From: Eledone cirrhosa
Taxonomy: Eukaryota
DNA length: 64,000 nucleotides
Assembly: GCA_964016885.1 (NCBI GenBank)
Contig: OZ024762.1
Coordinates: 26,660,001-26,724,000 of the forward strand
Direction: 5' to 3'
Both the position numbers and the translations under genes were made by a program. The notes below the pieces were generated by a model that saw only the letters and a program-made list of their open reading frames with translations, did not search any database and was not told where the DNA came from. Below are positions 52,732 to 57,135 of this stretch, piece by piece (position 1 is the first letter of the stretch; each line of letters opens with the position of its first letter).

Positions 52732-53601
52732 GAATTTATGTTCAGCGAATTCACGGACTTGACTTCACTTTTCGTTGCTTCACCATCTTTGTTTGTTTAC
52801 ACTCTCGCTCGTTCCCCTTATTTACGTGTCCCAACGACTTTCTTTAGCCGTTGCTCGCACCAACCGGGGGTATATGGTCTTTAAAGCGATGAAATACCAA
52901 TGCTGGTTGGAAGATCACTGATGAAGGACTAACTTTATTCATATGTAACCCATTAGCTACCACGCAGCACGTTTATTCTCATATTTGCACATATTTTTTC
53001 CCCCGCTTCTGACCCGTCTATTTCGTTCTTACTGCTTCCTCTTTCTCTCTGTCATTCTCTCTGTTAGCCTCTTCCTCACCCTTCACTCACTCACTCTCTG
53101 TTACTACCTATCCTCCTCCTCCTCCTTCCCGTTTGACCTGTGCGTAATTCTTTTCTTTCGCACGCTTGGTCAGGCTGGTTCCCCTTTTCTCTCTCTCTCG
53201 TCTACGATTTCACAGAACTTATGTTCACCGAATTCACGGACTAGACCCCTTCTTCCTCTCGTTAGACCTGTGCGGAATTCCTTCCTTGCTCACATTTCAA
53301 CCAGGTTTGATGGTCTTTATTCTCTCTCGTTCACGATTTCACCGAACTTATATTCATGGAAATCTGGGACTTGACTCTTTCTTCCTCACTTTTCGTTGCT
53401 TCACCATCTTTGTTTGTTTACACTCTCGCTGTTCCCTTTATTTACGTGTCCCAACGACTTTCTTTAGCCGTTGCTCGTACCAACCGGAGGTATATGGTCT
53501 TTAAAGCGAAGCAATACCGATGATCGTTGGAAGATCACTGATGATGGACCACTTTATTCATATGTACCCCATTTGCAACCACGCAGCACGTTTATTCTCA
53601 T
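52732..53601 (+). repeat. Family C1: ~620-bp pyrimidine-rich unit, ~1.4 copies
   Basis: Block ttcgttgcttcaccatc...gatcactgatga...cacgcagcacgtttattctcat repeated at ~52770-52983 and ~53390-53601. Confidence 0.75.
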
Positions 53602-54126
53602 ATATATATATAATATATATATATATATATATTAGAAAGTGAGGTTTTTTTTACAAAATGAAAAATAACCGAGGTGTCCTACACGAGTGAAAGTTTAAAG
53701 AAAAAAAGATTAAATCGAAAATGCAACTGTAGTCGTATTTTTAAAACAATATATATTTTGTTTTAAAAATAAGACTCCAGTTGCATATTCGATTTCATCT
53801 TTTTTTCTACATATATATATATATAGTATAATAATCGACTATCGAAAAATCGGCGCACGAGTTCACGATAAACAAAATTCGAAATGAGCGGCAGAGGGCT
53901 CAATAATTCAGATAAATCAGAGCTATAACTATCGGTAAAATACCGTCACACATTGAACATGTCAACAATCAACCATACGACCGAAAAATTGCGATACGGA
54001 AGATTCGGTACACTCAGATAAAATATCAATAAATCAATAAATCAAATGAATGATATATATAATATATATATATATATATATATATATATATATATATATA
54101 TATATAGATATATATATATATATATA

Positions 54127-54805
54127 AACGGAAAAAATGAAACGACATTTCATTTCCCACTCTTAGTACGGCTGTTACTTAAATATAAGTATGTACACGT
54201 ACATACATATATGTATACCGACGTACAGTAGTAAGTATATTTACAAACACACCGAGCATTATAATAAATGTTCGGTGAATCCATACGTGCATATATATAT
54301 ATATGTGTGCATGTATGTATATATATATATATACATACTACTGTACGTCGGTATACATATATGTATGTACGTGTACATACTTATATTTAAGTAACAGCCG
54401 TACTAAGAGTGGGAAATGAAATATCGTTTCATTTTTTCCGTTTATCGTTTTCGGTGCACCCGGCGGATTAACCCACTCGATATACAAATTGGGCTACTCA
54501 GCCGTTAATATGCATAAGGTAAGTATATACGTTCAACAATCTGGCAGGAAGGTATACGTTGCTGACGATAGCTAACAAGCTTGAAACTAGTACAGCGTTC
54601 CTTTGTCAGTGTTGAACAAACGAGCAACGGTGGTTGCTAGACACTACGGCTTAATACGGGTTGTTTGTTTACAAACACACCGAGCATTATAATAAATGTT
54701 CGGTGAATCCATACGTGCATATATATATGTGTGCATGTATGTATATATATATATACATACTACTGTACGTCGGTATACATATATGTATGTACGTGTACAT
54801 ACTTA
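54127..54805. mobile_element. Retrozyme-like family B2 insertion with short inverted arm; HHR plus at 54556-54598
   Basis: acgttg-CTGACGA-tagctaacaagctt-GAAA-cta-GTA-cagcgt; period ~430. Confidence 0.88.
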
Positions 54806-55014
54806 TATATATATATATGTATATATATATATATATATATATATATATATATATATATATATATATATACATATATATATAAATATATATATATATATAT
54901 ATATATAGTAATAATAATGAATTTGAAGACTAAAATCCAATTTATTTTAATAAAAAAAAAAAAAAAAAAATATATATATATATATATATATATATATATA
55001 TACATATATATAAG

Positions 55015-55613
55015 ATATGGAAATTCTCTGGATTTCCACTCTTTGGATTGGTAAAACCGTCCGTAACATCAATGGGAGAGGTGAGTATTTAAATCGTTTT
55101 TTAATTTGTTTAAAAAACTGTTTGATAATTGCTTGCTCCGCTCATTTGTATAGTTCTGTTATCTCAAACTAGTACCATCGAACCACAACTATTATAAATA
55201 CCTTGCATATTTCTATAGGTACCTAGTGCGTGCTGGAATATCCATACCCTTTTATGATTTTTCTCGTTATCTAGGGAACAAACGTTGTATCGGGACTGCT
55301 ATTTCTAGTGGCATGATCCACAAGTTTATAATAACCAGCTTTTACTTGTGGCCTAATTTTGGTGAGTGTCACTTTGACGGCTTGACCGCATGCGTTGGGC
55401 AGGAAGCGGAATATTGACTTACTATGAAATTTGCACCCTTATGGTATGGAAATAAGCTGTCTGAAGATCTAATTCTTTCCATTGGAAATTATATGGGTTT
55501 CCAATCTTTGGATTGGTGAACCCGTCCGTAACAGCAATAGAACAGGTGATTATTTAAATAGTTTTTTAATTTATTTAAAAAACTATTTGATAATTGATTG
55601 CTCCGCTCATTTA
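55015..55613 (+). repeat. ~465-bp unit with ~130-bp diverged terminal redundancy in (TA)n
   Basis: tggaaatt...ctttggattggt...ccgtccgtaaca...tgctccgctcattt at 55018-55148 and 55483-55612. Confidence 0.7.
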
Positions 55614-56077
55614 TATATATATATATATATATATATATATATATATATATATATATATATATATATATATATATATATATTATATATATAACATATATAT
55701 ATCATATATATAATATATATTTATATATTATATATATATATATTATATATATATATATATATAATATATATATAATATATATATTATATATATAATATAT
55801 ATATAATATATATATAATATATATATATTATAATTATAATATATATATAATATATATATAATATATATATATATATATATATATATATATATATATATAT
55901 ATATATATATGTATATATATATATATAAGTATTATATATATATAATATATATATATATTATATATTATTATATATATATATATATATATATATATATATA
56001 TATATATATATATTATATATATATATATATTATATATATATATTATATATATACTTATATAAGTATATATATATATA

Positions 56078-56285
56078 AGTTTGTTTACAAACACACCGAG
56101 CATTAAAATAAATGTTTGGTGAATCCATACGTACATATATATATATATGTGCGTGCTTGTATGTATATATATATACATACTACTGTACGTCTGTATACAT
56201 ATATGTATGTACGTATATATACTTATATTTAAGTAACAACCGTACCAAGTCTGGGAAATGAAATTTCGTTTCATTTTTTCCGTTT
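56078..56285 (+). mobile_element. Family B2 3'-terminal fragment
   Basis: Ends gggaaatgaaatttcgtttcattttttccgttt(AT)n. Confidence 0.8.
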
Positions 56286-56315
56286 ATATATATATATATA
56301 TATATTTATATATAT

Positions 56316-57135
56316 ATGAATGAAAATATACCGTGAAACAGGAACGTCGATTATCACTAGCCTGCTGATTATCATTCGTATTTATTCGCATTAAACAGTA
56401 GATAACTAAAATCAGTGCGAACGATAACTAAATTAAGCTAGGGGGACAGAGGACAGTAAACAAACAACATGGTAGTAATGCAACGTAAAGAGGGGAAAAG
56501 AGAGACAAGTCAATGCACCTTGTGGGCTTAAGTCCGAGTCGCAACAACGCAGCACGCCAATTTTCATTCACATGTATATTTTCATTCACATGTATATTTT
56601 CTCCCTTCGCTGTTTGTTCGTAATTTTTTCTGTCACCTTACTGCTATGCTCTTTTTTCTCTACCCCTTCTCTCTCCTTTACCTCTTGCTTTATTCCACCC
56701 CGCCGCTGGTCACACACTCTCCGCTGGCCCATTCCTCACACTTTCTCAGACTCAATCTCTGCTACTCCTCCTCTCTCACTTTCTCCGGTCTGACGTGCGT
56801 GTAATTCTTTCCTCTCTCAATTTTCGCGTGGCTCGGCCGTGTCTATGACTTCTCGTCATTTCATTTGTCGGACTTAAGCTCACAAGATTCATTGACTTGT
56901 GTCCTTTTCCTCTCTTTACGTTGCATTACATTACTACCATGTTGTTTGTTTACTTTCCTCTGTCCTGATAACTTAATTTAGTTATCGCTCGCATTGATTT
57001 TACGTATATAGTGTTTAATGCGAAGAAATACCAATGACAACCACAGCTATTGATGATGGACATTCCTGTTTCTCGTGCTATTTTCATTCAAACGTTCATA
57101 TTCGCAACAACGCAGCACACCATTCTTCATTCACA
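56316..57135 (+). repeat. Family C2: ~563-bp unit with terminal redundancy plus inverted partial copy (56316-56540)
   Basis: gcaacaacgcagcac at 56541 and 57104; homologous to C1; 56316-56540 is the reverse complement of ~56865-57090. Confidence 0.72.

Follow-up and report, generated by a model that had tools for sequence, protein, structure and literature searches.

A 64,000-nucleotide stretch of the Eledone cirrhosa genome (GCA_964016885.1, contig OZ024762.1, 26,660,001 to 26,724,000; hereafter the window, whose numbering is used below) carries two insertions, C1 and C2, of a repeat designated family C. As read from the sequence, the RNA motif of this repeat contains every nucleotide of the hammerhead core, in an order that is non-circularly permuted and pseudoknotted and is held by six predicted helices. 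Family C is very probably a Penelope-type non-coding repeat with a rearranged, pseudoknotted and likely self-cleaving hammerhead, copied into (AT)n tracts in trans. A preliminary description of this DNA had offered two readings, a retrozyme-like element using an aberrant hammerhead or an unknown structured RNA. The former agrees with the full core in permuted order and with the Penelope-type anatomy of the units, and the latter is set aside by the presence of every hammerhead core nucleotide.

Wiring and covariation of the motif

The wiring is best seen in C1a (52828-52929, forward strand), the sole copy in the window with an intact core. In the proposed fold, the RNA would run 5' to 3' from the closing helix P0 (5' strand GUCC, 52828-52831, pairing with GGAC at 52926-52929) through hairpin H (52832-52853, 8 bp with a 6-nt loop), which is stacked between P0 and stem II, into the stem II 5' strand (Y-UCGC, 52854-52858). 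This strand is detached from CUGAUGA and finds its partner at 52886-52890. The 5' strand of the I-II interaction helix (52860-52865, partner 52905-52910) would lead into block S (52869-52880), which comprises the stem III strand GGUAU, H17 of the NUH triplet at 52874, the predicted cut between 52874 and 52875, and the stem I strand UGGUCU. Block G (52886-52898) would follow with the stem II 3' strand, GAAA at 52891-52894 and UACC of stem III. Beyond the second interaction strand, block C (52912-52929) would close the motif with AGAUCA of stem I, CUGAUGA at 52918-52924, one variable base and the P0 3' strand. P0 and H would thereby stand in for the covalent link between A9 and stem II.

Most family C copies read GCGAA-GAAA-UACC, with GGUAU-A/C-UGGUCU upstream. 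GGUAU pairs with AUACC in stem III, including the pair A15.1-U16.1 (in the standard hammerhead numbering). UGGUCU pairs in stem I with AGAUCA, which directly precedes CUGAUGA, and UCGC pairs in stem II with GCGA, which directly precedes GAAA. The strand that follows UCGC and the strand that precedes AGAUCA form a helix of six pairs. The blocks thus follow the order cleavage site, GAAA, CUGAUGA (S-G-C), and the circular order C-G-S of types I, II and III is not found. Directly downstream of CUGAUGA come a single variable base (A 107, U 83, C 39 and G 3 in 232 complete copies) and then P0, not stem II. An uninterrupted block C is therefore absent: the bases after CUGAUGA pair with the upstream GUCC and not with the strand before GAAA.

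The preliminary description had drawn a three-way junction with neither a GAAA strand nor an NUH. GAAA stands in GCGAA-GAAA-UACC and NUH in GGUAU-A/C, both upstream of CUGAUGA, and the junction gives way to a full core with six helices in pseudoknotted order. The GAAA had escaped notice because of core changes in the decayed copies of the window; in C1b (the 53506 copy) an A-to-C change masks it. The short tgatc/gatca hairpin drawn at that stage rests on a G-to-C change of the 53521 copy, where a cluster of 57 members has GAUGG. The downstream ttYgc, proposed to pair with gcgaa, lies in an optional 3' tail, kept in 99 and absent from 114 of the 213 scored ends, and the upstream YUCGC fits better. 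A canonical hammerhead, the outcome named beforehand as fatal to a new motif, did not emerge: the motif is of none of the types I, II and III, and Rfam gave no match at the gathering score over the 64 kb. Twister, twister-sister, pistol, hatchet, hairpin and HDV-like ribozymes and SECIS, considered by their consensus features and Rfam, were dropped once the hammerhead parts fitted.

The 287 motif copies included 232 complete ones, from which 26 representatives chosen for diversity were aligned. In this alignment 92.3% of the cells are paired and 16 of 35 pairs are compensatory, so the absence of covariation, likewise named in advance as a negative outcome, did not arise either. Compensatory pairs make up five of six in the interaction helix, five of six in stem I, four of eight in hairpin H and one of five in P0, in which G-C alternates with A-U in 14 and 12 of the 26 rows, respectively. 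The conserved blocks and the covarying hairpin noted earlier are present. H17 is A in 130, C in 98, U in three and G in one of the 232 complete copies, as the NUH rule demands.

Several points weigh against this picture. None of 500 shuffles reached the observed pairing and slid-partner controls gave 27-46% paired, but the structure was drawn from the same, related rows; both controls are therefore inflated, and the pair counts are not probabilities. All 11 core bases and H17 are intact in 187 of the 232 complete copies, a figure inflated because the copies were retrieved by core-containing patterns. Within family C stem II has no compensatory pair among five (81.5% paired, four pairs invariant) and stem III has one of five (93.8% paired), and instead of G-C the pair adjoining GAAA is in most cases C-A. 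Stem I, the I-II helix, P0 and H covary within family C, whereas stems II and III covary only across families. Because these two stems are almost invariant in family C, support from outside the family is needed.

The same wiring in other repeats

Two further families were reached by a pattern match and a descriptor scan of the same genome. Family D (33 matches, 20 loci aligned) forms stem II from GACCC/GGGUC, stem III from GCAGU/ACUGU and stem I from CUGUCG/CGACAG, and it has a P0, a hairpin and an interaction helix of its own. In family E (342 candidates, 30 loci aligned), ACGA/UCGU makes up stem II, stem I extends to 7 bp and shows a covarying variant, and P0 is long. The loose descriptor found no match in three 254-kb shuffles and also gave weak false matches on neighbouring ordinary-hammerhead repeats (among 16 non-C matches). 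Family D (L465-L484, e.g. G000:C3:282599527-282599747) is an older repeat whose copies are ~70-85% alike over the matched parts. Family E (L394:880-1040, L525-L554) is non-coding, with a pyrimidine-rich body and a tail like that of family C.

Naiad elements are said to lack a canonical hammerhead, and eight of them, including Dst-4, Ovul and Esco, are labelled 'HHR_half_core' in the available text of the original report (PMC8557442). In passages of its 54-consensus file selected by motif search and inspected by eye, nine Naiad consensus 3' ends show the six-helix wiring: Bfor, Amil, Aacu, Anas, Movir-2, Plae, Dst-4, Obim and Ovul. Stem I of Naiad_Bfor is just 2 bp and the Esco form is degenerate, while the octopus Naiads Obim and Ovul have loops and linkers in common with family C. 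The names of these ends follow from record order. Two points count against a general assignment: the inspection by eye covered part of the 54 consensus ends, and the nematode Naiads in the same passages have the ordinary hammerhead order. Among the pattern matches listed, none of 120 from metagenomes and none of 120 from viral contigs passed the structure filter.

These ends also bear on a different geometry for the same ribozyme, in which P0 replaces stem II under A9-G12, the YUCGC/GCGAA helix is accessory and the core is opened between C11.1 and G12. The P0 of family C (GGAC/GUCC, after one extra base) begins with G-C and covaries, the pair next to GAAA is mismatched, and P0 directly follows CUGAUGA in Naiad_Plae and Naiad-4_Dst, all of which would suit such an arrangement. 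However, family D and most of the inspected Naiad ends have a G-C pair closing this helix next to GAAA. The interaction helix, moreover, hangs on the pre-GAAA helix just as it does on stem II of the type SGC hammerhead described below. This geometry is accordingly regarded as unlikely, and the YUCGC/GCGAA helix is taken as the probable stem II.

Genomic copies, element junctions and mobilisation

A search of the 3.0-Gb genome gave at least 2,464 exact matches to the family C GAAA-to-CUGAUGA pattern and 1,462 to a second core pattern, with no match to either reversed control. First-look candidates numbered 2,893 for the C1 end and 1,684 for the C2 end, of which 40 each were scored, and C1-like copies are 96-98% identical. 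At thirty loci the units occur in tandem, with truncated or inverted 5' parts and two fixed 3' ends ~35 nt apart. The tandem spacing is 500-659 nt in 44 of 51 cases over all family C loci fetched, and microsatellites flank the copies. No open reading frame (ORF) joined to family C was found at these loci; Penelope-type fragments near some of them are separate insertions. These features are those of a Penelope-type non-coding element.

Cleavage of the RNA after H17 would be expected to leave many copies that begin at this point. Genome-wide, 107 copies are complete from the cut site onward but lack the upstream GG, compared with 1,690 intact ones. The first 82 of the 107 were classified as 26 AT-flanked copies, 24 inversions, 17 unique flanks and 15 internal changes; ~70 of the 82 are true junctions and ~12 are point changes or small insertions. 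The junction falls within 1 nt of the site in 16 of the 24 inversions and 10 of the 17 unique flanks, and several inversions are fold-backs centred on the cut site. The upstream control gave 252 matches, among which 20 of the 100 listed proved to be true breaks on manual inspection, corresponding to ~50 over 11 nt; by rough estimate the junction peak is 4-5-fold higher. In an unbiased set, 5 of 99 placed copies start within 2 nt of the site, where ~1.5 are expected. Weighing against this peak, 16 of the 26 AT-flanked junctions are unplaceable, and the downstream control (19 matches, ~45-58 after rough filter correction) lies above baseline. The peak is just ~2-fold over that control because the interval directly downstream is also raised. 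As a genomic trace, the excess of 5' junctions at the predicted site gives indirect support for cleavage in vivo. In four copies (L602, L613, L584 and L612) a short stretch is inserted at the predicted cut site or a deletion stops there, as if cut RNA ends had rejoined or jumped.

In the proposed cycle, family C would be transcribed by the host or by read-through. Self-cleavage after the AUA or AUC triplet would free unit RNAs with a defined 5' end from read-through or multimer transcripts, and these would be captured in trans by a Penelope-type reverse transcriptase (RT)/endonuclease. Reverse transcription would be primed at (AT)n, starting at one of two sites 60-135 nt downstream, and would then often run off or fold back at the cut end, or enter a second unit. 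Circular RNA intermediates are possible, and family C may descend from a Naiad 3' end; both proposals are made with less confidence than the cycle itself. Two reverse-strand frames in the window, 17953-19899 and 38681-41797 (648 and 1,038 aa stop to stop), combine a Penelope-type RT with a C-terminal GIY-YIG. They are possible candidates for the trans-acting enzyme, their clade being judged from motifs only. Naiad RT remnants in the genome form a set of 43 matches, mostly 71-83% identical, against the 96-98% of C1-like copies. In the remnants L485-L524, the 3' region has a possible stem III and a CUGAUG remnant, and the full fold is not recoverable. Three results run counter to the proposed origin and cycle. 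The Naiad RT remnants carry stops and frameshifts (five pattern matches), no clear ribozyme was recovered from the 3' ends of decayed Naiads in this genome, and in another Penelope element the hammerhead is dispensable for in vitro insertion and no RNA reads end at its site (PMC11167929).

The last of these results would also suit a fold that is real but no longer cuts in family C, kept as a binding or priming scaffold for a borrowed RT, with the 5' junctions produced by stalling at the knot. The C-A mismatch beside the core and the raised break rate just downstream of the site point the same way. However, H17 varies among the allowed bases only, and subfamilies and families alike retain the unpaired catalytic bases. 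A stall would moreover be expected at the 3' edge of the structure rather than at the scissile bond in its middle. Loss of cleavage is thus improbable, and a cutting ribozyme is preferred.

Still less probable is a hammerhead of the conventional kind formed jointly by at least two RNA units, as a dimer or from tandem copies, instead of by a single knotted unit. The copies are often tandem, and pseudoknot-free folding of single strands (z of -0.14 to -3.09 in five copies) recovers no more than P0, H, stem III and the interaction helix in intact copies; RNAalifold retrieves the same helices, stem III in part. However, all strands lie within ~100 nt, and in its short fixed linkers and covarying interaction helix the motif agrees with monomeric type SGC. 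The least probable reading, the untranslated region of an ordinary transposon or a box C/D-like RNA with a chance UGAUGA, draws on a weak snR66 match at 52874-52918 (E 2.3, 24 bits against a cut-off of 65), the only one on the C1 motif when 52000-58600 was searched with Rfam at E up to 10, and is largely refuted by covariation, with covariation in the six-helix fold and the full core in three families and an empty descriptor scan of the shuffles.

Within the window, C1 (52732-53601, forward strand) is a 5'-truncated insertion that lies between (AT)n tracts and comprises ~1.4 units of a non-coding monomer of 620 nt; its homologous blocks, 52732-52984 and 53344-53603, are 620 nt apart and 88% identical. 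C2 consists of an inverted 5' segment (56316-56537, reverse strand) and a direct segment (56539-57135, forward strand), the latter a 563-nt unit with a terminal redundancy of 563 nt that ends in (CA)n/(AT)n. The inverted 5' block (56317-56537 against 57090-56868) is 84% identical. These comparisons bear out the earlier description of C1 and C2 as homologous insertions of more than one unit that run into microsatellite at their ends, with an inversion in C2 in the style of Penelope-like elements. The upstream C1 unit (52732-52984) differs by 12% from 53344-53601 and resembles a separate haplotype at other loci, and C1 may for this reason be a composite of two templates.

The other ribozyme copies of the window are decayed. 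C1b (53448-53549, forward strand) has A13 changed to C and is likely inactive on this ground, as is probably the copy at 56962-57061 (forward strand) in C2, which has U in place of C3 and mismatched positions within stems I and III. The copy in the inverted C2 segment has changes at G12, C3 and G8. The optional 3' tail of C1 (53566-53601, forward strand) lies between the two fixed 3' ends and contains ttYgc and ACGCAGCAC. UUYGC in the tail, at 53574-53578 and 57101-57105, is able to base-pair with GCGAA and might act as an off-switch by competing with stem II. Nearby, a 470-nt tandem element with a large inversion carries an ordinary-order minimal hammerhead at 52245-52307 (forward strand; Rfam HH9, E 0.94), with tandem copies at 51189-52219 (reverse strand). 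Another ordinary-order core (CUGAUGA ... GAAA) lies at ~57655-57715 (forward strand) within a large inverted repeat, 57634-58597.

Comparison with known systems

The closest relative of the motif is the type SGC of Eckert et al. 2023 (HRIMA-1 and variants; PMC10085705, cited here from its available portions), a validated hammerhead with the order site-GAAA-CUGAnGA and two core pseudoknots. Family C shares with it the block order, the short linker between stems I and II, the I-II helix, which ties the distal ends of these two stems together, and the two core pseudoknots. However, stem II of type SGC is taken to follow CUGAnGA covalently, with at most 1-2 inserted bases, whereas the stem II 5' strand of family C lies upstream of the site and is reached via P0 and H. 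Family C is not filed as SGC because the uninterrupted block C is lacking. Eckert et al. explicitly assumed that the CUGAnGA-stem II block cannot be interrupted, and family C breaks the assumption that the two are inseparable. The SGC RNAs described there come from metatranscriptomes, none from the genome of a known organism. In the literature portions at hand, non-circularly permuted hammerheads have so far been reported only from environmental sequence, while family C amounts to thousands of animal genomic copies. As described in part by Zhan et al. 2024 (PMC11300833), the pseudoknot-containing hammerhead likewise has a core that tolerates a pseudoknot at the stem II position. However, its A9, G10.1-C11.1 and G12 stand in normal covalent order, the pseudoknot is peripheral and the blocks are unpermuted.

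As a mobile element, family C resembles non-autonomous Penelope-like elements and non-LTR retrozymes in that its non-coding units are arranged in tandem, may be truncated or inverted at the 5' end, have fixed 3' ends with an optional tail and target microsatellites, and its insertion pattern is the one given in the available descriptions of Penelope-like elements (PMC8557442, PMC11167929). Animal non-LTR retrozymes, proposed to be Penelope-like derivatives in the accessible text of bioRxiv 10.64898/2026.07.22.740005, are also non-coding tandem units with one hammerhead each. They were, however, defined and searched by type I models, which are unable to match the permuted ribozyme of family C. 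The literature searched, which left out PMID 26167874 and the Eckert 2023 and bioRxiv supplements, held no description of a hammerhead with a split core, nor of permuted hammerheads in Naiads.

Naiads, as described in the consulted parts of Craig et al. 2021 (PMC8557442), resemble family C in their preference for (TA)n, their tandem and inverted insertions and a 30-40 bp tail; they differ in that family C has no ORF. It is probable that the motif represents a hammerhead topology of a seventh natural kind, its core open at A9 and tied up again through a helical junction. This topology would be active in vivo, would serve as the standard ribozyme of Naiads and their non-coding derivatives in ctenophores, cnidarians, acanthocephalans, crustaceans and cephalopods, and would have been missed by every type I-III descriptor. 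Family C offers a candidate answer to the apparent absence of hammerheads in Naiads, and implies that invertebrate genomes hold more retrozymes and ribozymes than surveys have counted.

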